Origin: an uncultured delta proteobacterium
GTDB taxonomy: Bacteria; Desulfobacterota; WTBG01; CAIYCZ01
DNA: 64,000 bases
Reading direction: 5' to 3'
Assembly (NCBI GenBank): GCA_963803975.1
Contig: CAWDOY010000014.1
Span: 128,001 to 192,000, forward strand
Program-made: the position numbers and the translations under genes
The notes under the pieces: generated by a model
Database searches by the model: none
What the model saw: the letters and a program-made list of their open reading frames with translations, nothing else
What the model was told of the DNA's origin: nothing
Part shown: one piece after another, positions 11,335 through 35,885 of the stretch
How the letters are laid out: the number at the start of each line of letters is the position of its first letter
Numbering within the stretch: the stretch's first letter is position 1

Positions 11335-11958
11335 ATGGGTTTTTGCTTGCAAGTTTCAGATAAGACAAAAGAAATAATCCTCAGCGCTGCAAAAGAACTT
11401 TTTGCCCAGAAGGGCTATTTTAAGACCACGTACGCTGATATTGCACGGCATGCAGGAGTTAATCAGGCAACGGTTTATCGCGGATTTAAAACGAAAGAAA
11501 ATATATTTACCTGCCTGTTAGAGGAAGAATACCAGCACATAACCCGGGAAACCTATAACGCGTTTACTGCAGATGAACCAACACCCCAAAAGCTGAAAAA
11601 GATAATAACAACAAACTTTACCTTAACAACCCGAAGCAAGCTCCTGAAATATATACTGCATGATGAGTATAGCCAGTTCCGCACAATTTTTAATACCAAA
11701 GACAAAAAAGCTTTTGACGAAATCCGCGCCATCATTCAGGAGGGCATAGCAAAAGGTGAAATAAAAAATGAAGACCCCTCCTTTCTGCTGGCAGTGCTTA
11801 ATTCGTTTCGCTTTTGCCTGCTCAGCCTGTATCGGAGTGAAAACATTCTCCTGGAGAGCAAGTACAGCCTTGATCATTTGATAGAAACCATAAACGATAT
11901 TTTTGTAGAGGGGTTTCTCAAAAACTTTGCAACCCATACAAAATTAAACATTGAGTAA
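11335..11958 (+). CDS. TetR/AcrR family transcriptional regulator
   Basis: N-terminal HTH IILSAAKELFAQKGY..TTYADIARHAGVNQATVYRGFKTKE; start placed at ATG 11335 downstream of TTGACA at 11284, rather than 11176. Confidence 0.85.
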   Translation: MGFCLQVSDKTKEIILSAAKELFAQKGYFKTTYADIARHAGVNQATVYRGFKTKENIFTCLLEEEYQHITRETYNAFTADEPTPQKLKKIITTNFTLTTRSKLLKYILHDEYSQFRTIFNTKDKKAFDEIRAIIQEGIAKGEIKNEDPSFLLAVLNSFRFCLLSLYRSENILLESKYSLDHLIETINDIFVEGFLKNFATHTKLNIE

Positions 11959-11991
11959 CAGCAAAGATTATATTATTAAAGGAGGCATATC

Positions 11992-12162
11992 ATGATACAA
12001 GTTGACAGGGAAAAATGTGTTGGCTGCGGAGGCTGTGTTGACCTTTGTCCCCGGACAGCAATTCGCTTTGTGAAAGATCGGGCGTTCATTGATGTAGATC
12101 TGTGCCTTGAGTGTAAGACCTGCGTGCAGGTTTGTCCCATGAAGGCACCCGATGAGCTGTAA
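11992..12162 (+). CDS. Small 2x[4Fe-4S] ferredoxin, 56 aa (not in the ORF track)
   Basis: AAGGAGG RBS; MIQVDREKCVGCGGCVDLCP...DLCLECKTCVQVCPMKAPDEL* has two CxxCxxCxxxCP motifs. Confidence 0.9.
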   Translation: MIQVDREKCVGCGGCVDLCPRTAIRFVKDRAFIDVDLCLECKTCVQVCPMKAPDEL

Positions 12163-12235
12163 GCAACTTGGGGAATACTAGCACGACGCTTGCAGAAGGG
12201 ATACATCCTTAAATTACAAGGAAAGGAGATTACGC

Positions 12236-12517
12236 TTGGAATCAACTGCTAAGTTTACAAAAAGCATGGTAGAGTGCTCGCTGCTCGATAAGGAGTTGGG
12301 CCGGCCGTTTAAGCCGGGAACCAGGAGAGAAGCGACCCCCGAATGGGATAAAGACAAATGCGTACGGTGCGGGCTGTGTTATGTGTACTGCCCTGATGGC
12401 GCAATTTATAGAACAGAAGACGGTTTTTTTGAGGCCGACACGGACAAATGCAAAGGATGCGGCATTTGTCACCGCGAATGCTGGTTTGGTGTCATCAGCA
12501 TGGTGAAGGAGGATTAA
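12236..12517 (+). CDS. 2-oxoacid:ferredoxin oxidoreductase delta-subunit-like 2x[4Fe-4S] protein (PorD-like)
   Basis: PEWDKDKCVRCGLCYVYCPDGAI...DKCKGCGICHREC; AAGGAG RBS before TTG. Confidence 0.8.
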   Translation: MESTAKFTKSMVECSLLDKELGRPFKPGTRREATPEWDKDKCVRCGLCYVYCPDGAIYRTEDGFFEADTDKCKGCGICHRECWFGVISMVKED

Positions 12518-12520
12518 ATA

Positions 12521-13234
12521 ATGGATAAGTTCAGTCTTTTTGTCCCCAACTTTTTGCCCTTTAAGGAATATTTTGTCCCTGAAAAAAATATCGCCTGCTC
12601 TGGCTGTGGCCTGGCGCTCGCTATCAGACAGACCTATAAGGCCCTCGAAGCAGTGATAGAAAAGGCCGAGTGGGTGAAAGCCGGCGATGGGAAGCTTTTT
12701 GCCCGGCTGTTTGATAAGTCCCCCATGGGCAACAGCGAGCCGTCACTGCTGCGGATAAAAAAAACCGGCGGAGAACTGATCATCTGCTTTGACAATGAAG
12801 CAGGAGGCAGTCTTGAGGAGGCAGTAAAGAAAGCAATGCCTGCTATAGCCGTAGCCGAGGGGTTCCACTATGTAGCCACTGCATGTCCCAGCTATCCCTT
12901 TGATCTGTATGAAAAGGTTAAAAAGGGCCTGGAGGCCGAGGGTAAAGCCTACCTTCACATACTCTGCCCGTGCCCGGTTGCATGGCAGTTTGATCCGGAA
13001 CTCACCGTGAAAATAGGCCGCTGGGCAGTTGAAAGCAGGGCCTTCCCGCTGTATGAAGTGGGCAGTGCCTCTGCCTATCACATGACCGTTACCACCGCAA
13101 AGCCGCGACCCCTGGCAGATTACCTGAAACCGCAGTATCGCTTTGCCGAGATCTCTGAGCAACAGATAGCAGACCTGGGCGCTGCGGTGGAGAGTGACTA
13201 TAAAAAATTAACCGAGAAGATGCAACCAGCATAG
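12521..13234 (+). CDS. Degenerate 2-oxoacid:ferredoxin oxidoreductase beta-subunit-like protein (PorB-like)
   Basis: ACSGCG, ICFDNEA, YVATACPSYPFDL..KVKK, HILCPCPVAW and FPLYE retained; thiamine-diphosphate-binding segments missing. Confidence 0.75.
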   Translation: MDKFSLFVPNFLPFKEYFVPEKNIACSGCGLALAIRQTYKALEAVIEKAEWVKAGDGKLFARLFDKSPMGNSEPSLLRIKKTGGELIICFDNEAGGSLEEAVKKAMPAIAVAEGFHYVATACPSYPFDLYEKVKKGLEAEGKAYLHILCPCPVAWQFDPELTVKIGRWAVESRAFPLYEVGSASAYHMTVTTAKPRPLADYLKPQYRFAEISEQQIADLGAAVESDYKKLTEKMQPA

Positions 13235-13292
13235 AACAGCGGTAGCATACTTATTTGCACAGATTACTTAATTGCCTGAAAGGAGCGGGAAA

Positions 13293-14219
13293 ATGGCAGA
13301 TATAAAATGGTCGCCAGACGGCAAACAGATGTTTGAGAAGCTTATGGGCGCTGTACCCGAGGCGATGAGAGAGGCAGTAAAACCGATGCTCCTGGAGAAA
13401 CTTGCCGGCAGGGCTGCCGGTAAAGCGGTTACGCAGGACATCGTTGCCACCATGGTGCAGGAGGATCTGCCGGAGCCTCAGAAAAGCGCACTTATGGAAG
13501 TGCTTGGTCTTAAGAAAAAACCTGCAAAAAAGGAGCCGGCACCAGCTGCCCCTGCAGCGCCTGCCAAAACTGAGTGGCAGGGGAAAAGTGAAGCAATGTT
13601 TGAACGCATGCTTCAGGAAGTTCCTGAAGCATTACGCGGCGTCTTCCGGGGAAAACTGATGCAGGTTCTCCAGCAGAAAGCAAAAGGCGGTCCCGCTGCA
13701 GAGAGCCATGTGACAGAGATCGTCCACGAGATGGTCCCGGAGCCTTTCAAGAGTAATATTCTGAAAGCATTTTCCACCATGGGTGATATTGACATGAATG
13801 TGGTGGAGGAGATTATTAAGAACAATCCTGGCGGACAGGAAACAGTCATCTCCATACTTCATGCCATCCAGGCCAAGTGCGGCTACTTACCGCAGGAAGC
13901 GCTCATACTGGTGAGCCAGAAGAAAGACATATTCCTGAGCAACCTGTATCGACTGGCCACATCCTATAGCGCCTTTCGTATAAAGCCGCTGAAAAAATAT
14001 GCGGTTACCGTGTGCAATGGAACCGGATGTCATGTTAAAGAAGGCGGGCAGATCCTCAAGGAGCTGGAAAAGAAAGTATCAGGAAATGGCTCACAGATAA
14101 CCCTGGAGAAGGTTAGATGTCTTGGCTGCTGTGATATGTCTCCCGCAGTAATGATCAACGGTGAGCTGTATGGCGGTGCTCAGGCACAGGCCAGGATTGC
14201 AGAAATCTTACACGAATAG
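13293..14219 (+). CDS. NuoE/HydC-like [2Fe-2S] subunit with two N-terminal helical repeats
   Basis: AGGAG RBS at 13281; C-terminal CNGTGCHV...CLGCCDMSP; N-terminal W-x5-MFE-x4-VPE repeats. Confidence 0.85.
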   Translation: MADIKWSPDGKQMFEKLMGAVPEAMREAVKPMLLEKLAGRAAGKAVTQDIVATMVQEDLPEPQKSALMEVLGLKKKPAKKEPAPAAPAAPAKTEWQGKSEAMFERMLQEVPEALRGVFRGKLMQVLQQKAKGGPAAESHVTEIVHEMVPEPFKSNILKAFSTMGDIDMNVVEEIIKNNPGGQETVISILHAIQAKCGYLPQEALILVSQKKDIFLSNLYRLATSYSAFRIKPLKKYAVTVCNGTGCHVKEGGQILKELEKKVSGNGSQITLEKVRCLGCCDMSPAVMINGELYGGAQAQARIAEILHE

Positions 14220-14234
14220 AGGAGAGCGAGACCT

Positions 14235-15947
14235 ATGAAAATAAATAGAGCCAGTGACCTTTCTAAAATAAAAAAACAGGGTTTGGATTTGCTCTCTCCG
14301 GCCACGACACGCATCACCGTAGGATCAGCAACCTGTGGCTTGGCAAAGGGAGCGGGAAAAGTTCTGGAAGCACTGAAATATGAAGTAAAAAAACAGAAGA
14401 TACAAGCTGAGGTGGTAGCGGTGGGATGCAACGGCCTCTGCTATGCCGAGCCGATTGTTGAAGTAATCCAGCCGGGCAAGCCGCGCATTACCTATGGACC
14501 GGTCACCGTGGAAAGAGTCGGTGAATTGCTGAAAGCAATCAAAACAGGCAAGGTGGTGCAGGACCTGGCGCTGGCGCGGCACGATGAAGAAGCCTACTGC
14601 CTGAATATCGCTCCGCTTAAATACGCAAAAGGGAAAGTTCCCGCAGCCCTGTCCGGCATCAAAGAATACCGGAAGCAGGATTTTTTCAAAAACCAGTTAA
14701 AGCTGGTGAGTAAAAATGCCGGCACCATCAGCCCGTCGCGCATTGAAGAATATATTGCCCTGGATGGCTATAGGGCTTTGGCAAAAGTGCTCACGGAGAT
14801 GAAGCCGGAGGACGTGATCAAAGAAGTTACGGCTTCAAAGCTCCGGGGCCGGGGCGGCGCAGGGTTCCCGACAGGGCTGAAATGGCAGGCATGCCGCTCT
14901 GCAGCAGGGGATAAAAAATATATTGTGTGTAATGGCAGCGAAGGTGACCCTGAGATCGGGATGCATAGAAGTTTTCTTGAATCCGACCCCCAGGCCATAA
15001 TCGAAGGCATGGCCATAGCAGGCTACGCAGTTGGCGCAGATGCGGGTTACATATACGTCAATGACCGCTATGTTGTCGCGCTGGAACGGCTGGAAGAGGC
15101 TATCAAGCAGGCAGAACAGACCGGTCTTCTGGGCAGCAATATTTTAGGAAGCGGATTTTCCTTCTCGCTTACGGTGAAGCGCGGCGGCGGCGCCTATGTG
15201 TGCGGCGAGGAAACCGCGCTGCTCAATGCGCTTGAAGGCCTGAGCGGAGAACCGCGGCCGCGGCCGCCGTACCCTGCACAGCAGGGTCTTTTCGGCAAGC
15301 CGACGGTAGTCAATAATATTGAGACGCTGGCAAATATTCCCCTCATTGCCCTGCATGGCGGAAAATGGTTTGCAAAGATCGGCACCGCATCCAGCACCGG
15401 AACCAAGATTGTAGCGCTCTCCGGCGCTGTGGCTCAGCCCGGCTGGGTAGAGGTGCCCCTGGGAACGCCGGTCAAGGCCATCATTGAAACCTTTGGCAAG
15501 GGAACCGGAACAGGGAAAAAAGTAAAAGCCTTTCAAACCGGCGGGCCGTCCGGAGGAGTGCTCCCCGCCTCTCTTCTCAATATTAAGCTTGATTATGATC
15601 AGCTCACCAAGGCCGGAAGCCTGCTTGGCTCCGGGGGACTGCTGGTCATGGATGAAGGCACGGACATGCTTGACATGGCGAAGTTTTTAACCGACTTTTT
15701 TGCAGAAGAGACCTGCGGCAAATGCAGCACCTGCCGGGAAGGCGTTAAACGGCTTCAGGAAATCATTGACAGCATTATGCAGGGATACGGCACCAAGGAG
15801 CACCTCAATCTGGTAAAACGCATGGCTGCTGCAATGTCAGACACTGCGGCATGTGCTTTGGGTAAAACAGCGGCCGTTCCTTTTCTTTCCGTACTCAAAC
15901 ATTTCCCCAAGGAAGTGGAAGGTAAGCTGCTCAGAAAGGGCGCTTAA
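14235..15947 (+). CDS. NuoF/HydB-like FMN/NAD(P)H-binding subunit
   Basis: GRGGAGFPTGLKW, GAYVCGEETAL, CGKCSTCREG..CALG; N-terminal thioredoxin-like domain (TCG..GCNGLCYAEP). Confidence 0.9.
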   Translation: MKINRASDLSKIKKQGLDLLSPATTRITVGSATCGLAKGAGKVLEALKYEVKKQKIQAEVVAVGCNGLCYAEPIVEVIQPGKPRITYGPVTVERVGELLKAIKTGKVVQDLALARHDEEAYCLNIAPLKYAKGKVPAALSGIKEYRKQDFFKNQLKLVSKNAGTISPSRIEEYIALDGYRALAKVLTEMKPEDVIKEVTASKLRGRGGAGFPTGLKWQACRSAAGDKKYIVCNGSEGDPEIGMHRSFLESDPQAIIEGMAIAGYAVGADAGYIYVNDRYVVALERLEEAIKQAEQTGLLGSNILGSGFSFSLTVKRGGGAYVCGEETALLNALEGLSGEPRPRPPYPAQQGLFGKPTVVNNIETLANIPLIALHGGKWFAKIGTASSTGTKIVALSGAVAQPGWVEVPLGTPVKAIIETFGKGTGTGKKVKAFQTGGPSGGVLPASLLNIKLDYDQLTKAGSLLGSGGLLVMDEGTDMLDMAKFLTDFFAEETCGKCSTCREGVKRLQEIIDSIMQGYGTKEHLNLVKRMAAAMSDTAACALGKTAAVPFLSVLKHFPKEVEGKLLRKGA

Positions 15948-15995
15948 TTAACAGGACAGAACATACGTAACTGCTATTCTTTAATTATATAGGGG

Positions 15996-16943
15996 ATGAA
16001 ACCTATGGCGACACTTAAAATTAATGGAAAAAAAATTACCGCACCCGATGGTGCAACGATTCTTGAAGCGGCGCGCGAGCACGATATCAAGATTCCCACG
16101 CTATGCTCAAACGAAGCCCTGAAGCCGTACGGCGCCTGCCGCCTGTGCATTGTGGAAGTCACTAAAAACGGCAGGACCACCATTGAAACATCATGCACCT
16201 ACCCCGCCGAAGACGGGCTGGATGTAAAGACTGAATCGCCGCGGGTAGCTGAAGGCAGAAAGCTGGTTATTGAGCTGTATCTTGCCCGCTGCCCCAATGT
16301 TAAGATCATCCGCCAGATGGCAGAGGAGTACGGGATTAAGGAAAGCGCCCCGCAGATGGGTAAAGACAATGACTACTGCATTCTCTGCGGACTCTGCGTG
16401 CGCGCCTGCAACGAAGTGGTCAAGGCCGGGGCCATACAGTTTGCCGGAAGCGGCATCAATAAAATCGTTGATTCGCCCTTTCATAAAACCGCCGAAGACT
16501 GTGTTGCCTGCGGCTCGTGCGCATTTATCTGCCCCACCGGGATAATTAAAAAGAACGATCTGCCGTCCACATCGCAATGCACTCCCGAGGGCTGCACGCA
16601 AACCGGAGCGCAGCGGGAAATTTTAAACTGGCAGGTTGAGCATAAGCTGAAAGTGTGCACCAAATGCGGCAACCCTTATTCCCCGGAACCCCATCTGACA
16701 AAGATCACCCGGCAATATTATTTCCTGCCGGAATTTTTCAACATCTGCCCGTCATGCCGCCAGTATCCGGTGGTTGACGAGGAAAAGTGTCTGGGCTGCG
16801 GCGGATGCATGGAAAACTGCCCCATTGGAGCGCTTGAGCTTGAAGACAAGGGCGGTTATGACAAAAAAGCCCATGTCTTTACTGAGAACTGCACGGCCTG
16901 TCATACCTGTGAAGATTACTGCCCGATGAAAGCAATTAGCTAA
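15996..16943 (+). CDS. NuoG-N-terminus-like multi-Fe-S protein without a catalytic domain
   Basis: IPTLC..YGACRLC..SC [2Fe-2S], CILCGLCVRAC, CVACGSCAFICP, CxxC pair and C-terminal 2x[4Fe-4S] domain. Confidence 0.85.
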   Translation: MKPMATLKINGKKITAPDGATILEAAREHDIKIPTLCSNEALKPYGACRLCIVEVTKNGRTTIETSCTYPAEDGLDVKTESPRVAEGRKLVIELYLARCPNVKIIRQMAEEYGIKESAPQMGKDNDYCILCGLCVRACNEVVKAGAIQFAGSGINKIVDSPFHKTAEDCVACGSCAFICPTGIIKKNDLPSTSQCTPEGCTQTGAQREILNWQVEHKLKVCTKCGNPYSPEPHLTKITRQYYFLPEFFNICPSCRQYPVVDEEKCLGCGGCMENCPIGALELEDKGGYDKKAHVFTENCTACHTCEDYCPMKAIS

Positions 16944-16977
16944 ACGGTATTTAATATAGAGATAAGGAGGAGTCATA

Positions 16978-18267
16978 ATGGTTTATGATCTCGCAATAGT
17001 TGGAGCAGGCCCCGGCGGACTGCACGCGGCCAAATGGGCTAACAAAAAGGGGCTGAAAGTCGCAGTCATAGAGAAGCGCAAAGATATTTCTAAAATTACC
17101 CGATACTGCAGCGAACATATCATTCTGGATGAAGACTACAATGGAGATACCATTAAAGTTGACACTGCCGCGGGAAAAATAATCTCAACCAAGAACGGCT
17201 GGGAAGTTAACTACCGGGGAGAATTATGTCCGGTCACGGATAAATACTATTCTTCTCCCAAGCTGTACCACTGCCATTTTGCCTGGCCGGATAAGCGGCC
17301 TTTTGCCTATAAATACGGCAAGGGAACGCTCCTGAAGGGACTGCTCGAAGAGTGCCTTGCCTTAGGGGTTACCTATATTACTGAAACAACGGCCTATGAT
17401 GCCACGGACAGCCCCGCAGGGGTTGAGCTCAAATGCGTGAGCAAGGGAAAGAAATTTAAGATCCAGGCTAAGAAACTTATCGCTGCTGATGGCGCAAGCG
17501 CCCAACTGGCGCAGAAACTGGGAAGAAATAATGAGCGAGCCTATCTCGGGTTTGCCTTGGTCCTAGCGGTATATATGTCCAATGTAAAAAACTACAGCAC
17601 TTCCGAATGGAGGGGCTGGTGGGGGCGCTGCTATGGCACAAACCTGGCGCCGCTCATGGGTACCGGGCCTGAAGGTCATTTTGACTGGGCCGACATGATT
17701 ATTCTTGGCAGCCCCAAAGAGCCACCCGAAAAGACCTTTGAATTTTTTACCAAAGAGGGGCCCATGGCATTCATGTTTGAAAATGCCAAGATAGAGGCCA
17801 AACACTGCTGCTCTACCAAAGCATATACGCCGCTAAAACAACCGGCCAAGGGAAACTGCATTATGATTGGTGATGCCGCGGCGTTTGTCGAAACCCAGGC
17901 CCAGGGAGCTCTGAGCTGCGGCTTCAGGGCAGCTGAAGCCGTGGCGAAAGAACTTGAGGGCAAAAACGGCTTTGAAGAATATAACCAGTGGTGGCTCAAA
18001 TCGTTTGAATTTAACGACGAAGGGATGATGCAGGTAACAACCGGGTACGCGCTCATTCCTACCTATACGGACGACGAGATTGATTATCTGTTCTCCCTGT
18101 GTCATGGTCATACCATGGAGGGGAGCTGGAGCCAGTACAAGTCCCCCAAGATGATGTGGAACCTTATTCTGAAAGACCCGGAAAAGATTAAGCGGGAGCG
18201 GCCGGAAGTATGGGCAAAGATTCAGACCCGCGGCACCCAGACGCTTTCCGACAGCATCAACAAATGA
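16978..18267 (+). CDS. FAD-dependent oxidoreductase, geranylgeranyl reductase/FixC family
   Basis: YDLAIVGAGPGG, LIAADG, MIGDAA motifs; AAGGAGGAG RBS. Confidence 0.8.
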   Translation: MVYDLAIVGAGPGGLHAAKWANKKGLKVAVIEKRKDISKITRYCSEHIILDEDYNGDTIKVDTAAGKIISTKNGWEVNYRGELCPVTDKYYSSPKLYHCHFAWPDKRPFAYKYGKGTLLKGLLEECLALGVTYITETTAYDATDSPAGVELKCVSKGKKFKIQAKKLIAADGASAQLAQKLGRNNERAYLGFALVLAVYMSNVKNYSTSEWRGWWGRCYGTNLAPLMGTGPEGHFDWADMIILGSPKEPPEKTFEFFTKEGPMAFMFENAKIEAKHCCSTKAYTPLKQPAKGNCIMIGDAAAFVETQAQGALSCGFRAAEAVAKELEGKNGFEEYNQWWLKSFEFNDEGMMQVTTGYALIPTYTDDEIDYLFSLCHGHTMEGSWSQYKSPKMMWNLILKDPEKIKRERPEVWAKIQTRGTQTLSDSINK

Positions 18268-18300
18268 TGTAACCGGCTTTCAAAAAATACGATTGCCCCA

Positions 18301-18334
18301 AAGGGGGTGGGTTTTAAAAACCACCCCCTTTTTT
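18301..18334 (+). terminator. Rho-independent terminator ending the redox operon
   Basis: AAGGGGGTGG-gttttaaaaa-CCACCCCCTT followed by a T-run. Confidence 0.8.
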
Positions 18335-18343
18335 CATTTTATT

Positions 18344-19603
18344 ATGGGATTGCAAAGGTTTTTTATTATTGCAGGCTTTGCTCTGTTTTTTATTGCCGTG
18401 CAGCTGGTAACCCTTTATGGCTGCTACAACACCTTCCGCTCCTTTAAGAATAAAAAAACCCTGATAGCGGCCCTTGTCTATATCCTGTTTTTAAATCTCT
18501 CCTACCTGTTTCTTTTTTACCGCTATCCGCTTCCGGCCGAGCTTAAAACGACCATTAACTATATCCTTATCTACCCCTACTTTATCTACATGCTGCTGTG
18601 CCTGGTGCTGTTCCCGTGGTTTGTGCTGAACGGGCTCTTTGTCTCCATTAAGAAGCTGTGGGCGGAGGTTGCGGCGCTGATTGGTTATGATGATACAAAG
18701 ACAAAACGAACCGTGTCGGAAGGCCGAAGGGACTTTTTAAAAGTAGCGACATCGGCGTTGCTGCTGCCGGTTGGCGGCTGCTCACTCTATGGCACATATA
18801 TCGGGAGGAATAGAATAACCATAGAGGAGAAGACCATTTCCTTCTCTGATTTTCCTGCAGCACTGGATGGCTTGAGCATTGTGCAGATAAGTGATCTTCA
18901 TGCAGGGGTTTTCATGGAGGGATGGGAGCTGGAACCCTACATAGAGATGGTAAATGATTTAAAGCCGGACATTGTTGTCATTACCGGCGACATCATCAGC
19001 TGGGGGGCGCATTACATAGAACCTGCGGTTGCTGCCCTGGGGAAAATAAAATGTAATCATGGTGTTTATGCGATAATGGGCAACCATGATTTTTACGGAG
19101 ATATCGATGCGCTCTGTGAGAGCCTTGAGAAATCGGGCATCACCGTATTGCGCAACAAATGGAAAAAACTAGATTTCTTCAGCGAAGCCGCCCCGCTCTA
19201 TCTCATCGGGGTTGATGATGTCTGGGCAACCAGATATTTCAAAAAAAGGAATATCTCCTTACGGGATATTGTTTCAGGGATTCCGGAAAGAAGCTTTAAA
19301 CTGCTGCTCTCGCATAACCCTATCCTCTTTGATGAGGCTGCCGCACACGGGATACACCTCACCCTTTCAGGCCACACCCATGCAGGACAGATTATTCTTC
19401 CGTTTCCACAAGAACACGGCTATTCCTTTGCCCGGCTTATTTATAAGAGAGATTACGGCCTTTATCGCAACGGTGATTCATTTCTGTACATCAACCGGGG
19501 ACTCGGTGTCATCGGCCCGCCCCTGCGCATCAACTGCCCGCGGGAAATTACCCGGATTGTTTTAAAAAGCAGCCCGCGCGAAAAAGGCAGCACTAACGGA
19601 TGA
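18344..19603 (+). CDS. Membrane-anchored calcineurin-like metallophosphoesterase (YkuE/YaeI-like)
   Basis: N-terminal TM helices; SDLH, TGD, GNHD, SHNP and SGHTHAGQ motifs. Confidence 0.9.
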   Translation: MGLQRFFIIAGFALFFIAVQLVTLYGCYNTFRSFKNKKTLIAALVYILFLNLSYLFLFYRYPLPAELKTTINYILIYPYFIYMLLCLVLFPWFVLNGLFVSIKKLWAEVAALIGYDDTKTKRTVSEGRRDFLKVATSALLLPVGGCSLYGTYIGRNRITIEEKTISFSDFPAALDGLSIVQISDLHAGVFMEGWELEPYIEMVNDLKPDIVVITGDIISWGAHYIEPAVAALGKIKCNHGVYAIMGNHDFYGDIDALCESLEKSGITVLRNKWKKLDFFSEAAPLYLIGVDDVWATRYFKKRNISLRDIVSGIPERSFKLLLSHNPILFDEAAAHGIHLTLSGHTHAGQIILPFPQEHGYSFARLIYKRDYGLYRNGDSFLYINRGLGVIGPPLRINCPREITRIVLKSSPREKGSTNG

Positions 19604-22874: not shown

Positions 22875-23702
22875 ATGAAACGCAGAGATTTTATTAAAAT
22901 CGCAGGTATCGGCTGTCTTGGCTGCTGCTGCCCGCCTGGCCTGCTGGTCAAAAGCGCCGGCGCAGCGACCGGCGCGCGCGGGGCAGCCAGTGCTTTTCCC
23001 TTCCGGCTGGCTGGTCTTGGCACCGGCCCATTTTCCCTGTCTGCTGCCGGCAGGGCCTATGACGCCCAGGAGCTGCTTGCAAGCTATGACGATGCCGAAT
23101 ACGCAAAAAAGCGGCGGGATATGTACCTCGAGATTTTTGACGGGGGAACAGTCGACAAGATACTGGCTGAGATGCGTGTCTCATACGAAGCGCTTATCCC
23201 GGAGATACCCTTCATCGGAAAAAACAATTTCCACCTGCAGTGGGTCATCCCGAACATGGAGAAACTCGCCGAGTATATTGTTGCGAGAAATTACGGCATC
23301 ACGGCCGACGTGTTCAGCCGCATGTACATCAAGCGGGCAACCTATGACCTGCTCGCACAACCTGAGGAGGAGCGGAAGATGATCGGGCAGATGCAGTTCG
23401 GACCGGTGGCGGAAACGCTGATGCGGTACGTGGCATTCCGCTCGCAGCTGAAGCTCTTTCCTGATGACTACATCCTGAGCTTTGTTCCGGGAGACGGGAA
23501 AGATTTCGACTGGGGGCTTGACTACACCCAGTGCACCAATATCATTGTGTATAAAAAGTATGACGCGCTGGAAGTTCTGTACCCGATGGTCTGCGCCATG
23601 GATTATGTTGCGGGCATGACCATGCGTGTCGGCTATTACCGCACCAAGACCCTGGTAAAGGGGGATTCAATCTGCGACCTGCGGTGGAAATGGCAGGGAT
23701 AA
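22875..23702 (+). CDS. L-2-amino-thiazoline-4-carboxylate hydrolase-like (V4R-related) protein with a Tat signal
   Basis: MKRRDFIK twin-arginine signal; C-terminal DYTQC...VCAMDY...RTKTLVKGDSICDLRW. Confidence 0.75.
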   Translation: MKRRDFIKIAGIGCLGCCCPPGLLVKSAGAATGARGAASAFPFRLAGLGTGPFSLSAAGRAYDAQELLASYDDAEYAKKRRDMYLEIFDGGTVDKILAEMRVSYEALIPEIPFIGKNNFHLQWVIPNMEKLAEYIVARNYGITADVFSRMYIKRATYDLLAQPEEERKMIGQMQFGPVAETLMRYVAFRSQLKLFPDDYILSFVPGDGKDFDWGLDYTQCTNIIVYKKYDALEVLYPMVCAMDYVAGMTMRVGYYRTKTLVKGDSICDLRWKWQG

Positions 23703-28372: not shown

Positions 28373-29327
28373 ATAACCGGTCCATCCGGGCCAGCAGCCA
28401 TTGCGCCCGGCGCTGCGCGATCACGTTCGCCAGGCGCTGTTCCGGCAAGGCATTGACGTCGATCGCCAACGCCTGATTTAGCAGTTTCACAAACTCGGCC
28501 CGGTTCTGCAGGCCGACATCGACCGTTTCGGCGAATGCTACCAGCGGTGCCGCGCGCCGTCCCTTGGAAAGCTGCAGCGCCCGGCCCAGGCTGGCACGGG
28601 CGCGTTCAACAGAACCGCCAGCAGCAGCCGGCCTTCCTCCTTCGTAGGCGATGAAAAAATCATGGATGGCACCCAGGTCGTAGCCTTCGTCGAGTTCCAG
28701 GGCGCGGCGCATGAGCACCTCGACCTGAGGCAGGTCGGCACCCAGTTCAGTATCAGTCTTGTTCAGCGCAATCGCCGCCCCCCAAGCCATTGCCGTCCAG
28801 TAGAGCTGTGCCACGTTCGCCTTGCGGAACCGGGATAGCGCCGCGCTCGGGTCGGCTCTAAGCGACGTGCGCACGCCGGGCTGGACTTCCTCCAGGCCGC
28901 GCATACCGTAACCCAGCGCCCGGCAGTAGAGATGGCCCGCCTGCTTCCGGAGTGCCGTGGCCTGTGCCAAATCACTATCCTCAACAAAATCAGCCCTGGT
29001 TTGCACAAAGGCATAGGCATATTGCGTGAACCCGCTGGTTGCGGCGAGGAGCAGCTCTTTGTGGTGCGGGGACTGCAGCAAGAGGCCTTCGATAGTCTTG
29101 AGACCGAAAGGCAGTGCCGCGCCAACCAGCTCCGGGTCGTCGTCAATGGCGTACACCGAGGAGCCGGTGGCGAGAGCATCACCCAGGCGGTTGACGGCAA
29201 ACTGCTTAAAGGAGCAGCCGGGTAGTGTCAGGGCTCCCAGGAGCAGAGCCAGTCCCAGAATTTTTCTCTGCCGCAGCGCACTTCGCTGCGCGTCGCTCCG
29301 AGATAAAAAATAAAAAAAATCTGACAT
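28362..29327 (-). CDS. TRAP transporter TatT component (TPR-like lipoprotein)
   Basis: Lipobox LPGC; DDDPELVGAALPFGLK; adjacent to dctP and dctQM. Confidence 0.85.
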   Translation of the reverse strand: MSDFFYFLSRSDAQRSALRQRKILGLALLLGALTLPGCSFKQFAVNRLGDALATGSSVYAIDDDPELVGAALPFGLKTIEGLLLQSPHHKELLLAATSGFTQYAYAFVQTRADFVEDSDLAQATALRKQAGHLYCRALGYGMRGLEEVQPGVRTSLRADPSAALSRFRKANVAQLYWTAMAWGAAIALNKTDTELGADLPQVEVLMRRALELDEGYDLGAIHDFFIAYEGGRPAAAGGSVERARASLGRALQLSKGRRAAPLVAFAETVDVGLQNRAEFVKLLNQALAIDVNALPEQRLANVIAQRRAQWLLARMDRLFVE

Positions 29328-29566
29328 GCTTACTGTGCGGAAATGAATTGCCGGGGCCACTATCGAACAGATAGAAACTCTTTTTTTGGACGGGGTAAGT
29401 ATAGGCAGGGGGCGATTGTGTGTCAATGAAAAAGTCTTCATGAAAAAGTCTTCTCCAGAGATGGAAATGCTTAATAAGGTTACGCAAACCAAGGAGTCAA
29501 ACAAGGTAAGCGAAAGGTGAGAACAAGAAGCAGTGTCAGTAATGGCTATATTTGCCCTCTTTTTTA

Positions 29567-29595
29567 TTGCCTTCTTATTTCAATTTCACTATAGT
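29567..29595 (+). promoter_or_regulatory. Putative sigma70 promoter for dacA
   Basis: TTGCCT-17 nt-TATAGT. Confidence 0.45.
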
Positions 29596-29662
29596 TAAAA
29601 AAACGCAATCATGCTCCTGTTCGCATTCCACAACAGCTCAAACGTATTACAGGTAACGGCAG

Positions 29663-30931
29663 ATGAAATTCCTTTTTAAAAGTCTCTTCCTGGTAATTGC
29701 CATCAGTTGCTTCTCTCTTCTGCACGCTTCTGCTGCCCCGGCACCGCCTGCAGCTCCCTCCTTCCAGGTCACCGCCCGGTCAGCACTGCTCATCAACGGC
29801 CTGACCGGAAAAATTGTGTTCGAGCAGAACGCGGATGATAAGATCCCTCCCGCGAGCCTGATTAAAATCATGACCCTCTATCTCATCTATGATGCCATTG
29901 ATAGCGGCAACGCCAAAATTACGGACATGGTTACCATCAGCCAGCGGGCCTGGAAGTTCGGCGGCTCGCAGATGTATTTGGAAGTCAATATGCAGGTGAC
30001 GCTCGCTGACATTATAAAGGGTATTGTGGTGGTCTCGGGGAATGATGCCTGCGTTGCGGCGGCTGAACACCTTTCAGGCACGGAAGAGGTGTTTGTCGAA
30101 AAAATGAACAAAAAGGCTGCTGAGCTCGGGCTGACCAGCAGCCTTTTTAAAAACTGCCACGGCCTTCCGGTGGACGGGCAGTACACCACAGCCCGCGACA
30201 TGGCGACCCTTGCCTATAATTATCTTACGCATCATCCCCATGCTACGGACATACACAGCATCAAAGAATTTACCTTTAACAACATCACCCAGCAGAACAG
30301 AAACAAACTGCTATGGCGTGACGCAAGCGTGGACGGGTTAAAGACCGGGTGGATCAGGGAGTCAGGCTATCATCTCATCGCCACCGCACACAAGGATAAT
30401 GACCGGTACATCGCGGTTGTGATGGGCGCAAAGAACCATACCATCCGCGAGGAGGAAGCCCTGAAGCTGCTTAACTACGGCTTCAGAAATTTCAAAACCA
30501 GCGAGCTGGTGCAAAAGGGAAAGCCCGTGGCAGCGCTGCCGGTGTGGAACGGAATTGAAGAAGAAGTGACGCTGGCAGCTGTCGAATCATCGTTTGTGAC
30601 CGCTCCCCGCGATCAGGCCGGTGCCGTGCAGATTCAGCAGGATGTGCCTGCAGGTATTTTTGCCCCGGTGGCAAAAGACCAGAGAATCGGCTCCCTCAAG
30701 ATCATGGTTGACGGGAAGCCCTATGCCGAGATCCCCTTGGCAGCGCTGGCAGCTGTAGATAAGACCGGTTTTGTAAAACAGGTGCTGCAGACCATCGGCC
30801 GTTCTTTTACTGCCGCGCCGTACTGGGGTATTATTGCGGTTGTCCTGATCGTCATCCTGTTCTTTGTCGGCGTATCCAGAACAAAAGGGAGCAGCGGTAA
30901 AAAGAAGAAAGATAGTTCTCTGGTCTCATAA
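29663..30931 (+). CDS. dacA: D-alanyl-D-alanine carboxypeptidase (PBP5 family)
   Basis: PASLIK (SxxK), SGN and KTG motifs; signal peptide and C-terminal TM helix. Confidence 0.9.
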   Translation: MKFLFKSLFLVIAISCFSLLHASAAPAPPAAPSFQVTARSALLINGLTGKIVFEQNADDKIPPASLIKIMTLYLIYDAIDSGNAKITDMVTISQRAWKFGGSQMYLEVNMQVTLADIIKGIVVVSGNDACVAAAEHLSGTEEVFVEKMNKKAAELGLTSSLFKNCHGLPVDGQYTTARDMATLAYNYLTHHPHATDIHSIKEFTFNNITQQNRNKLLWRDASVDGLKTGWIRESGYHLIATAHKDNDRYIAVVMGAKNHTIREEEALKLLNYGFRNFKTSELVQKGKPVAALPVWNGIEEEVTLAAVESSFVTAPRDQAGAVQIQQDVPAGIFAPVAKDQRIGSLKIMVDGKPYAEIPLAALAAVDKTGFVKQVLQTIGRSFTAAPYWGIIAVVLIVILFFVGVSRTKGSSGKKKKDSSLVS

Positions 30932-31032
30932 TATTCCGGCACTGCCGCAGGAGAATGCGTGCGCCAGAAATCAGGATCATAATAATATAAATAGTGCCCG
31001 CACCGCTGTAATCTGTCTCATGTACTCTGACT

Positions 31033-33457
<2,425 letters not shown>

Positions 33458-33732
33458 AATTAGGTTAAGGCGGGGAAAAAGAAAATGCTGCATCGAAAGG
33501 GACGCAGATAAACGTCCACCCTCCGCAGTGCAATGAAGATAAAGATATTGGTGATTACCAGGTGCCATTTTAATTTTGGGTGCTAACTTTGTCAGTGCTA
33601 CGGAGGACGGGCGGATTTTCAGGATGCTAAATAAGTATTTTTCCTGATTTCCTGAGTTCCAGATATCGGTGATTATATTTCTTTATCCGGATGGGTATTG
33701 TATAAATATTCCTGAAGGGCTATACTGAACCT

Positions 33733-34065
33733 ATGCAAAATCTGAAGCTTAATCAAAACGAAGAACAGGCTATTATAAAGCTCAGTAAAGCGCTGCGGGC
33801 AAAATACCGCATTATTGATTTTTACGTGTACGGCTCTAAAGCACGCGGGGATGCTACGCCTGAGTCTGATATCGATGTTATGATTGAGCTCGAAGAGTAC
33901 ACCCCCGAAATTGAGTCAGCGATTGATGACCTTGTTTTTGACATAAATCTTGCTCATGACTGCTTCATATCAACAGTGATGTTCAGCAAAAAAGAGCTTG
34001 AGGAAGGCCCTCTTGGTGAATCACCTTTTTATAAAGCAATAGCACGGGAGGGGATTAGAATTTGA
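33733..34065 (+). CDS. Minimal nucleotidyltransferase (MNT) antitoxin
   Basis: YGSKARGD...SDIDV motif; overlaps the HEPN start (TTGA). Confidence 0.85.
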   Translation: MQNLKLNQNEEQAIIKLSKALRAKYRIIDFYVYGSKARGDATPESDIDVMIELEEYTPEIESAIDDLVFDINLAHDCFISTVMFSKKELEEGPLGESPFYKAIAREGIRI

Positions 34066-34458
34066 CTGCAGATGAAAAGAAAATCGAGCTTGCAAAATAT
34101 AGAATCAAACAGGCTGAAGAAAGTCTTGAGGAAGCACGGTTTCTTTTGTCCGGGAGAAAAGTACCCGTTCTATAATTAATCGGGCTTATTATGCCAGTTC
34201 TATTCAGTATTGGCGCTGCTGGTACATGAAAGTTACTCGTCTTCGAAACATAGTGGAGTTATCAGTTATTTTAATAAGCGTTTTATAAAAGAGGGCGTCT
34301 TCCCGGAAGGTCTCGGCAGAGCAATAAATAAGGCATTTGAACTGAGGCAGCGTGGAGATTACCGCGAATACTGTGATCTCAGCTATGACCAGGTAACGCC
34401 AATAATCGAAGAGGCAGAACTTTTCATAACAGCAGTAAAAAGGCATTTGAGTTTATAA
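34062..34458 (+). pseudogene. HEPN-domain protein of an MNT-HEPN pair, two apparent 1-nt deletions
   Basis: Reconstructs to ..YRIKQAEESLEEARFLL..INRAYYA(M)FYSVLALL..KHSGVISYF..FELRQRGDY; frame breaks near 34157-34160 and 34196. Confidence 0.75.
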
Positions 34459-34565
34459 TCAACTGAAATGCCTTTTCTGCAACATGTCCTTCTATAATTC
34501 CCCGTGAGTTTTGCATAAAAGCATGCCCCTGTCAGGTTTCTCCCAAAGAGGAGGCTGATCGAACC

Positions 34566-35885
34566 ATGACCGAAGAATCTTATCTTGAGCGAACCAACCT
34601 TTTGTTTGACCGGGCAGTACAGATCATAAACTGCTCCCGCGGCGCAAAAGACCAGCTGAAAGCCGGCATCGTTGACATGCTCAGAAGGCCCCAGCGCATC
34701 CATCACGCGCGCTTCCCGGTTAAGATGGACAATGATGAAGTGCGGATGTTTGAAGGCTGGCGAGTGCAGCACTCTCTTGACAAAGCGCCTACCAAAGGCG
34801 GTCTCAGGCTCTCTCCAGATGTCAGCCTTGAAGAGCTCTCAGCCCTGGCCTTCTGGATGACCTGGAAGAATGTCATAGCCGCCACGCCGTTTACCGGCGC
34901 CAAGGGGGGCGTGGTCTGCGACACCAAAAGTCTGAGCGAGGTGGAAATAGCGCGCATCATACGCCGGTTTGCCTACGAGATGAGCCACGTGTTCGGCCCC
35001 TTAAGCGACGTGCCATCCCCCGACATGTACACGGGCCCCCGGGAGATGGCGTGGATCTATGATACCTTCACCATGATGAACGCCAGAAATCCGGTGGCGA
35101 ATCCCCAGGCCGTGGTCACCGGAAAGCCGGCAGCCTTCGGCGGCATAGAATTGCGAAAAGAGGCTACAGCCTTGGGCGGTGTCTATGTGCTTGAAGAAGC
35201 TTTTCGCCGGGGCGATATAAAGGCAGCCGGCGGGCTGTCCGGGAAAACCGTGGCGGTGCAGGGGTTCGGTAAAGTCGGTGCTGCTGCGGCGCGGCTCTTC
35301 CATGAACGGGGAGCCCGCATTGTGGCGGTGTCTGATTCAAAAGGCGGCATCTACTGCCCGGAAGGGCTTGATCCGGCAGACGTATTAAATTATAAGCGCG
35401 CGTCGAAAGAAAAATCTATCACCAGCTACCGGGGCTTACCGGTCCTGGAGCGCGACGCCATTCAGACCGTGGCCTGTGATATTTTTGTTCCCGCAGCGGG
35501 CCAGGATTCACTCACCGCGCACTATGCCCGGCAGCTGCAGGCTTCAATAGTGCTTGAGCTTGCCAATGGTCCTGCGACCCTGCAGGCGGACGAAGTGCTT
35601 GCTGCAAAGGGGGTCTTTGTGATCCCTGATTTTGTGGCTAATGCCGGAGGGGTTGTCGCCTCCTACTACGAGTGGCAGGCAAACCTGCGCTATGACCGGC
35701 AGACAGGAACTGAAACCTACCGCGGCCGGCTGCAGGAGCAGATGACCCAGACCTATGAGCGCGCCCGCGCAACACAGCTTGATTATTCAAAACGCTGCCG
35801 CGCCATCAGCCTGCGCGAGGCAGGCCTCATCTACGGTATAGAAGAGCTGCACGACCACATCCGGGAGCGGGGCATCTTTCCGTAA
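34566..35885 (+). CDS. Glu/Leu/Phe/Val dehydrogenase
   Basis: KGGLR, MTWK, GAKGG, QGFGKVG, ELANGP, PDFVANAGGV. Confidence 0.9.
   Translation: MTEESYLERTNLLFDRAVQIINCSRGAKDQLKAGIVDMLRRPQRIHHARFPVKMDNDEVRMFEGWRVQHSLDKAPTKGGLRLSPDVSLEELSALAFWMTWKNVIAATPFTGAKGGVVCDTKSLSEVEIARIIRRFAYEMSHVFGPLSDVPSPDMYTGPREMAWIYDTFTMMNARNPVANPQAVVTGKPAAFGGIELRKEATALGGVYVLEEAFRRGDIKAAGGLSGKTVAVQGFGKVGAAAARLFHERGARIVAVSDSKGGIYCPEGLDPADVLNYKRASKEKSITSYRGLPVLERDAIQTVACDIFVPAAGQDSLTAHYARQLQASIVLELANGPATLQADEVLAAKGVFVIPDFVANAGGVVASYYEWQANLRYDRQTGTETYRGRLQEQMTQTYERARATQLDYSKRCRAISLREAGLIYGIEELHDHIRERGIFP

Follow-up and report, generated by a model that had tools for sequence, protein, structure and literature searches.

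To what does a soluble NuoEFG-like module deliver its electrons when none of its usual partners is encoded beside it? This question is raised by positions 11335-18334 of a 64,000-nucleotide stretch of DNA from an uncultured delta proteobacterium (the window), which is part of the 224-kb contig C14 of genome G000 (98% complete). The span holds eight intact open reading frames (ORFs), all on the plus strand and separated by gaps of 3-73 nt. They encode a TetR-family regulator, a free ferredoxin, a PorD-type subunit, a shortened PorB relative (pseudo-PorB), three subunits resembling NuoE, NuoF and NuoG (BfuC, BfuB and BfuA), and a flavoprotein of the superfamily that unites geranylgeranyl reductase (GGR) and FixC.

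We see about an even chance that the seven proteins other than TetR form one soluble complex derived from Por-Bfu, which passes electrons from NADH to the flavoprotein without bifurcation and on to a carbon-carbon double bond of the substrate. The truncated BfuB would oxidize NADH at its flavin mononucleotide (FMN), from which the electrons would pass unsplit through cluster B1 and the clusters of BfuA to a ferredoxin domain fused to BfuA, and from there to the flavin adenine dinucleotide (FAD) of the GGR-like subunit. This FAD would reduce the double bond, most plausibly on a tetrapyrrole or its side chain, while PorD and pseudo-PorB would be retained as a relay or scaffold and as a port for the free ferredoxin. 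The parts of this reading differ in strength. A single complex with the flavoprotein as its catalytic end is highly probable, the absence of bifurcation in the window copy is probable, and a reductive direction of the flavoprotein is reasonably likely. A double-bond acceptor lies near 0 mV (the value for enoyl-CoA). NADH, at about -280 mV (Table 1 of PMC9304861), needs no bifurcation to reach such an acceptor, which fits the loss of clusters B3 and B4 described below.

The seven-gene operon and its distribution

We fetched 20 loci with the window's version of the cassette (type 1), picked where the best PorB-like, NuoF-like or flavoprotein matches stood near one another. The order ferredoxin-PorD-pseudo-PorB-BfuC-BfuB-BfuA-flavoprotein is retained in 19 of them, and the 20th ends at a contig end. 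When fetched loci and listed coordinates are taken together, BfuA adjoins the flavoprotein in 28 of 31 relatives, from families f1, f2, f4 and f5; among the other three, G038 is cut after BfuA, and the arrangement was not seen in G014 and G017. The seven genes, TetR excluded, are an operon conserved across four families of one uncultured class of Desulfobacterota. Nine relatives of families f3 and f6 have neither the short pseudo-PorB nor a flavoprotein of the window clade, and a flavoprotein profile at E 1e-60 matched 12 of 401 genomes across the phylum, all from f1, f2 and f4. The best 80 matches with a short pseudo-PorB come from metagenome-assembled genomes labeled as uncultured Thermodesulfobacteriota, delta proteobacterium, Proteobacteria or bacterium, and one as Myxococcota. 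The TetR gene (11335-11958; 207 aa; PF00440 (TetR_N), 58 bits) precedes the cassette in only two of the 20 fetched type 1 loci, both from the window's own family, and in one further locus (L021, L023 and L088 in all); it is a local addition and no conserved part of the unit.

The conserved adjacency of BfuA and the flavoprotein is matched by their predicted docking. BfuA (15996-16943, probable start 16005; Fer2_4 and Fer4 domains) carries a fused C-terminal 2x[4Fe-4S] ferredoxin domain whose eight cysteines are all invariant. We docked it with the flavoprotein (16978-18267; 429 aa), using a 21-row alignment for each protein and three controls. The pair scored 0.82 against 0.01 for the best control; of 157 solved complexes 116 pass the docking mark, as do 2 of the 215 mismatched pairs (rough figures only, given the alignments used). 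The runs agree in at least 83% of contacts, with a predicted local distance difference test (pLDDT) score of at least 88 for the partners, and the predicted interface lies wholly on BfuA residues 241-312. The fused ferredoxin domain is predicted to dock beside R42 and C278 of the flavoprotein, both invariant, with contacts from the cluster ligand C268 of BfuA to R42 and from BfuA residue 270 to C278. Since FixC-FixX (7koe) is a solved look-alike, the pass shows likeness and plausibility, not binding.

An intrinsic terminator with an 11-bp hairpin (18300-18331) and a U-run closes the operon (18300-18335, plus strand). This 78-nt stretch folds at -26 kcal/mol (z -3.36), and 0 of 200 shuffles were equally good; a simple terminator scan of the window did not list the hairpin. 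Sigma-70-like sites numbered 25 against 13.7 expected, none of them decisive, with one 9/12 site preceding the ferredoxin gene, and no operator-like inverted repeat stood out in the promoter scan. RNA-library contigs of relatives (four runs, two studies) bridge pseudo-PorB and BfuC (X2 record 11) as well as BfuC and BfuB (X1 record 4, X2 record 12, X3 record 17), and shares were below 0.2 in 10 of the 12 RNA runs listed. We do not count these contigs as co-transcription, because flanking genes are covered too, DNA is possibly present and no piece spans the operon.

A membrane-like stretch is missing from all eight proteins (their 19-residue hydropathy peaks at 1.48 or below, against up to 2.53 in the next gene), and Pfam and NCBIfam scans of the span gave no match to H-cluster, NiFe, pterin, PorA or PorC domains. 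A first-pass annotation had described closely packed, co-oriented genes before a strong terminator, with TetR, ferredoxin, PorD, pseudo-PorB and NuoEFG-like proteins and no hydrogenase, molybdopterin, PorA/PorC or membrane Nuo subunit. These calls stand. The soluble wire ending at an FAD enzyme is supported by the conserved gene order and by the predicted docking of the NuoG-like protein on the flavoprotein, two points that it proposed to examine. Orthology to a characterized complex with its catalytic subunit elsewhere, which it had named as a possible refutation, was not found; its TetR, cast as a component and sensor of the system, drops out. Searches of the literature outside subscription papers gave no description of the operon, with the proviso that type 3 loci (see below) could be among those in Supplementary Table 1 of PMC9304861; the part of PMC13689815 consulted concerns an unrelated family.

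Past the terminator lies a membrane-anchored metallophosphoesterase (18293-19603), which likewise follows the cassette in L021-L023, L025, L028 and L034. The product of 22875-23702 starts with a twin-arginine-like sequence and matches ATC_hydrolase (E 1.3e-9).

Pseudo-PorB and the relation to Por-Bfu

The front part of the operon consists of Por-type proteins. The free 2x[4Fe-4S] ferredoxin (11992-12162; 56 aa; Fer4; 8 Cys) was found in 19 of 20 type 1 loci and is 78-100% identical among relatives; its nearest group is the ferredoxin that precedes porC in intact f4 Por-Bfu operons (mean 90 bits). PorD (12236-12517; 93 aa, TTG start) is a 2x[4Fe-4S] subunit that exceeds the cut-off of TIGR02179 (75.8 versus 60.05 bits). 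Pseudo-PorB (12521-13234; 237 aa) matches PorB models far below cut-off (126 versus 405 bits) and has the beta-subunit fold of 2-oxoacid:ferredoxin oxidoreductases minus about 70 residues (model pLDDT 82.8; top fold match oxalate oxidoreductase beta, 5exe_C). The thiamine motif GDG...DNE.YMNTG and the NATGC motif occur in 8 of 8 intact PorB and are absent from every short and long pseudo-PorB read; the GDG at residues 56-58 of the window protein is a chance occurrence that is not conserved. With the TGC cysteine lost, pseudo-PorB lacks the full set of four cluster cysteines and retains C26, C29 and C151, which we take to be three of the four proximal-cluster ligands; a cluster with an open site is possible. 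PorA and PorC, which belong to Por-Bfu and to the four-subunit 2-oxoacid:ferredoxin oxidoreductases, are absent in 20 of 20 type 1 loci. No free porA/porC partner for pseudo-PorB was found in G000, where the sole close porA/porC pair is that of the intact operon on contig C18. We also considered a decaying pseudogene and rejected it, as no listed near-full-length match has an internal stop and 38 columns are invariant in 26 sequences. Databases annotate the protein as a pyruvate:ferredoxin oxidoreductase beta subunit.

Genome G000 and its relatives hold several versions of the module, which we divide into types 0 to 3 and intermediates. Type 0 is the intact porC-D-A-B-bfuC-B(-A) operon; it matches Por-Bfu (Por-BfuA-G), a BfuABC-family member of Type 2 known from prediction (Schut et al. 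2022, PMC9304861), and occurs also in Dehalococcoidia records. The C18 operon of G000 reads porC-D-A-B-bfuC-B, and relatives add bfuA and a leading ferredoxin. Type 3 comprises PorD, a long PorB without the thiamine motif, BfuC, BfuB, BfuA, ferredoxin and flavoprotein, with a free ferredoxin gene between BfuA and flavoprotein where type 1 has the fused domain. Its BfuB has the canonical NADEGDPGAYMDR loop and both C-terminal clusters in 12 of 13 fetched loci. In the intermediates (L069, the second BfuB of L070, L117 and the window genome's own copy on C16) the FMN loop is altered and the tail is kept partly or wholly. Type 2 combines a short pseudo-PorB with a truncated BfuB and has no adjacent co-oriented flavoprotein; in f4 its BfuA is encoded inside the operon, and in 20 of 20 f1 and f2 relatives bfuA stands alone amid housekeeping genes.

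The window operon looks derived from Por-Bfu. The two share PorD, a PorB-derived subunit and BfuC-B-A in identical order. The window operon differs in lacking PorA, PorC, the thiamine motif and clusters B2-B4 of BfuB, in its remodeled FMN loop, and in its gains: PCP_red-like repeats in BfuC, the ferredoxin fused to BfuA, and the GGR-like flavoprotein as the final gene. In quick trees, all unrooted, type 1 BfuB and PorB each form a clade (support 100), and in the BfuB tree the intermediates fall between type 3 and types 1 and 2, while two other BfuB-like genes of G000 branch between type 0 and type 3. With unrooted trees and these intervening genes, descent from Por-Bfu rests on gene order, PorB and PorD similarity and the leading ferredoxin, and the order of events is a reading, because the quick BfuB and PorB trees are unrooted and have long branches.

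An alternative that we consider unlikely, yet take seriously, reverses the flow: electrons would enter at PorD and pseudo-PorB from reduced ferredoxin, or from oxidation of the flavoprotein's substrate, and exit to NAD+, so that the complex mainly reoxidizes carriers as a ferredoxin-fed hub. The content of G000 supports it, with 29 matches to AFOR_C (the tungsten aldehyde oxidoreductase/BamB family; some are pieces), no FeFe hydrogenase and no dsrA above cut-off; the organism is probably not a sulfate reducer despite its kinship. The same genome has 8 nitrogenase-like and 18 GGR-like matches. The extra subunits of Por-Bfu have moreover been proposed to feed electrons through cluster A4 (PMC9304861), and the flavoprotein-less type 2 version is conserved. 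Against such a hub, the dedicated fusion and the predicted docking suggest the flavoprotein as the end of the wire, and its nearest solved relative is a reductase.

Several further observations concern these copies. Type 3 loci (L061-L073; own copy L211, G000:C25, about 29300-35250, minus strand) have a full BfuB with B2-B4 and canonical loop, and the type 3 sister cassette is a candidate new bifurcating Bfu enzyme. These loci often hold a second GGR-like gene and PadR, chelatase-like and PNPOx-like genes, and the own copy reads frameshifted. The lone BfuA-ferredoxin gene (L207:4738-5682 on G000:C45; L215-L235) is 65-98% conserved in 20 of 20 f1 and f2 relatives and probably supplies the subunit that the four-gene type 2 cassette (own copy L212, C3:103517-107244) lacks. 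Many paralogous genes on C16, C18, C25, C4 and C47 of G000 read frameshifted, including bfuC and bfuB of the intact-type Por-Bfu, which may reflect assembly error rather than decay; near-duplicate loci occur on C24/C36 and on C31/C4. Beyond the window, L177 (G000:C14:84000-96000) is a complex I-like nuo cluster with NuoF in the long BfuB form, Nuo-Bfu-like by eye.

The truncated BfuB and bifurcation

BfuB (14235-15947; 570 aa) has the FMN/NAD domain (Complex1_51K, PF01512), SLBB (PF10531) and the B1 cluster domain (NADH_4Fe-4S, PF10589; Cys 494, 497, 500 and 540). At a constant offset of 52, the residues of NfnB that contact NAD (PMC11829005) correspond to F211, K216, E326 and Y346 of BfuB. 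All of these are retained, as are GGPSG, the cysteines of B1 and three of those in the thioredoxin domain. Both partners have their expected clusters, [2Fe-2S] in BfuC and A1 and A2 in BfuA. Clusters B2, B3 and B4, by contrast, are gone in 19 of 19 full-length type 1 BfuB, the window copy included, which end in a tail of 67-74 aa without CxxCxxC. At the residues that we take to be the B2 (Zn) site, the H-x5-CP tail is absent and the CMVD cysteine is substituted wherever the pattern is readable. The FMN loop, altered in 21 of 21 copies, reads NGSEGDPEIGMHR in the window in place of NADEGDPGA(F/Y)MDR. Since the BfuABC definition includes the C-terminal 2x[4Fe-4S] domain of BfuB (B3, B4; IPR017896; PMC9304861), the loss of B2, B3 and B4 places the window operon outside it. 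Deletion of B3/B4 in the HydABC of T. kivui abolished bifurcation (PMC11829005).

The best PDB hits of BfuB come from NfnABC (9n5u_B), Wor-Bfu (9bov_B) and HydABC (7t2r_B). These share the FMN/NAD site, B1, C1, the thioredoxin domain and GGPSG with the window module, but keep the C-terminal B3/B4 domain that hands electrons to ferredoxin. In the absence of that domain the window BfuB is like the non-bifurcating NADH modules Nqo1/NuoEFG, Hyd1ABC and FdsGB (PMC7311640). Unlike them, it still has GGPSG, a thioredoxin domain at its N-terminus and the Met that is typically found in bifurcating subunits, which makes the truncation look like a secondary loss. Position 367 of the residue criteria for bifurcating subunits, which the offset does not place, is presumably the aromatic residue of A(F/Y)xCGEE; it is Tyr in type 1 (non-bifurcating-like) and Phe in type 3.

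These retained features also carry the next alternative, in which bifurcation is hidden: PorD, the free ferredoxin or the BfuA tail would substitute for B3/B4, and NADH would drive the reduction of both the double bond and ferredoxin. In its favor, the module still has FMN, B1, C1, the thioredoxin domain, M243 and GGPSG, B1-FMN-C1 is the minimal bifurcation site, and the sister type 3 cassettes retain the entire core. The joint loss of B2 and B3/B4 and the remodeled FMN loop argue against it. The idea that the BfuA tail is a relocated B3/B4 gained no support either: the tail scores a mean of 36-44 bits with the C-terminal domain of BfuB and 43-51 bits with free ferredoxins, so it does not resemble the former more closely. 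We regard hidden bifurcation as quite improbable and retain the unsplit path from NADH to the flavoprotein.

BfuC (13302-14219; PF01257, 2Fe-2S_thioredx) begins with two helical repeats whose top Atlas match is PCP_red (0.90); the Pfam scan gave no PF08369 (PCP_red) hit and a weak one to DUF2621 (E 0.0013). Among the 26,879 ORFs of G000, a hidden Markov model of the repeat recovers nothing beyond the two BfuC of this kind and the tail region of a DPOR-like B subunit (E 0.001). An extra PCP_red-like repeat lies between BfuC and BfuB in L026, L028-L032, L120 and L206 (as an N-terminal fusion to BfuB in L120). In other relatives BfuC has a single repeat or none (L021, L033), and the RNA contigs skip 13295-13596.

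The flavoprotein and its substrate

In the profile search with the flavoprotein, the GGR of T. acidophilum (3oz2) was closest (E 2.8e-25) and FixC second (8.8e-15); Foldseek with the model (pLDDT 87.8) ranks 3oz2 first (TM 0.67) and FixC 20th. The protein has the GGR fold, GxGxxG, a cysteine (C44) at the GGR Cys47 position and the invariant residues R42, C44, C278 and E305. As its closest solved relative is a reductase and the Cys47-position cysteine is kept, it likely works in the reductive direction. It shares the FAD fold, the flavin-adjacent cysteine and a predicted ferredoxin partner with 3oz2 and FixC-FixX, from which it differs in its low identity (16-19%), the absence of PxxYxWxFP and RxxFD, the invariant Glu305 in the GDAA loop, and its wiring to a Bfu-type module instead of the free ferredoxin or electron-transferring flavoprotein (ETF) of GGR and FixC systems.

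Pairing of a flavoprotein with a ferredoxin is the FixC-FixX design. It speaks, with the second rank of FixC in the profile search, for a quinone branch, in which the flavoprotein would hand NADH electrons to quinone as a soluble alternative NADH dehydrogenase. However, no FixC model is among the 13 NCBIfam families that the 21 members match at E 1e-8, FixC ranks low by fold, no etf gene is among the eight ORFs, and the 8-25 related flavoproteins per genome suggest substrate-specific enzymes; we give this branch only a small chance. A true geranylgeranyl or prenyl reductase that acts on lipids or quinone tails and has a dedicated electron supply, suggested by the fold, Cys44 and the xxGDAA motif (19 of 21), is very improbable, as the GGR pocket motifs of PMC10821996 fail (PxxYxWxFP in 0 of 21, RxxFD/LD in 1 of 21) and TIGR02032 matches 21 of 21 weakly (best E 2.5e-21; 62.8 bits in the window copy against a cut-off of 158.8). 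The operon would act like a Bfu or complex I electron-input module joined to a GGR/FixCX-like end, and belongs to none of the Bfu, Por-Bfu and GGR groups. Of the first-pass interpretation, the soluble wire to an FAD enzyme is supported; possible bifurcation is unlikely for the window copy, GGR membership fails, and the likely parent, Por-Bfu (PMC9304861), had gone unnamed.

The nearest paralogues of the flavoprotein (55-62%; own copy L161 44%) follow FAD-oxidase-type and CCG-domain genes in L192, L193, L194, L195, L203 and L204. The paralogue loci read (L192 group) also hold a PNPOx-like gene with a CxxCH motif and no Bfu module; Pfam has no family for the gene preceding the sister flavoprotein (L192:4649) or for several small neighbors.

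For the substrate class we turned to genome context. Among 80 selected proteins scanned, the neighbors of the GGR-like paralogues of G000 include bilin-reductase-fold, ferrochelatase/CbiX-like, DPOR-like and URO-D genes. The bilin-reductase fold (PF05996) has 22 matches in G000 and 6-18 in 30 of 31 relatives with a flavoprotein of the window clade, against none in the nine f3 and f6 relatives without it; among 14 controls only Synechococcus has it. Of 22 GGR-like genes or pieces, nine have a bilin-reductase-like or chelatase-like neighbor within 10 kb (2.6 expected, p 0.0004). Such genes occur in the fetched flanks of 4 of 20 type 1, 1 of 20 type 2 and 7 of 13 type 3 loci, of 0 of 7 intact Por/Por-Bfu (type 0) loci and of 0 of 29 further loci (L132-L160). 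DPOR-like genes, found in 22 of 40 relatives, are patchier than the cassette, which is thus not tied to them. We favor a tetrapyrrole because the bilin-reductase-, chelatase- and GGR-like families are expanded and clustered and BfuC carries PCP_red-like repeats, and put a tetrapyrrole-related substrate at slightly less than an even chance.

A coproporphyrinogen-oxidase-like gene (PF01218, E 2.3e-6, below cut-off) stands directly before type 3 in L065 (8744-9451, minus strand), in an anaerobe, and in pieces before the own type 3 copy (L211:9706-10276, minus strand); this fold is common to bilin reductases (PMC13446030).

A number of observations weigh against the proposed reading. For descent, the BfuB tree does not group the cassettes with Por-Bfu to the exclusion of the two other BfuB-like genes of G000. 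For the flavoprotein as the end of the wire, the type 2 module is equally well conserved, which means that the module works with no flavoprotein beside it as well. The docking pass may come from the likeness to solved FixC-FixX, and a pass is also possible for close paralogues. BfuB is mixed under the residue criteria of PMC7311640, with M243 and GGPSG bifurcating-like and I241 in neither group, and the universal FMN loop change leaves the pyridine nucleotide uncertain. For the substrate, frameshift pieces inflate the co-location count, as do two loci that are near-duplicates, and related genomes do not count as independent. The window's 224-kb contig has no bilin-reductase-like or chelatase-like gene, nor do the fetched flanks of 16 of 20 type 1 loci, and G016 (95% complete) carries the cassette with 0 PF05996 matches.

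More speculatively, and with clearly less confidence, the cassettes might be the electron supply of an undescribed anaerobic reduction of chlorophyll or haem tetrapyrroles in sediments. Type 3 would be a new kind of Bfu enzyme that splits NADH electrons between ferredoxin and a double bond of a pigment and supplies the many bilin-reductase-like and DPOR-like enzymes, and the window copy would be its descendant, rewired around a thiamine-less PorB in a stepwise series from a pyruvate-linked enzyme to a reductase wire.

The GGR-like flavoprotein would represent a new catalytic end for Bfu-type modules. Single genomes hold a natural series from intact Por-Bfu through the full-core flavoprotein cassette to copies without B2-B4, which offers ready-made controls for what makes a Bfu enzyme bifurcate. 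The conserved pseudo-PorB, annotated as a pyruvate:ferredoxin oxidoreductase beta subunit, inflates counts of that enzyme in these genomes. Should the substrate prove to be a tetrapyrrole, the biological share of pigment breakdown in anoxic sediments would become testable with defined enzymes.

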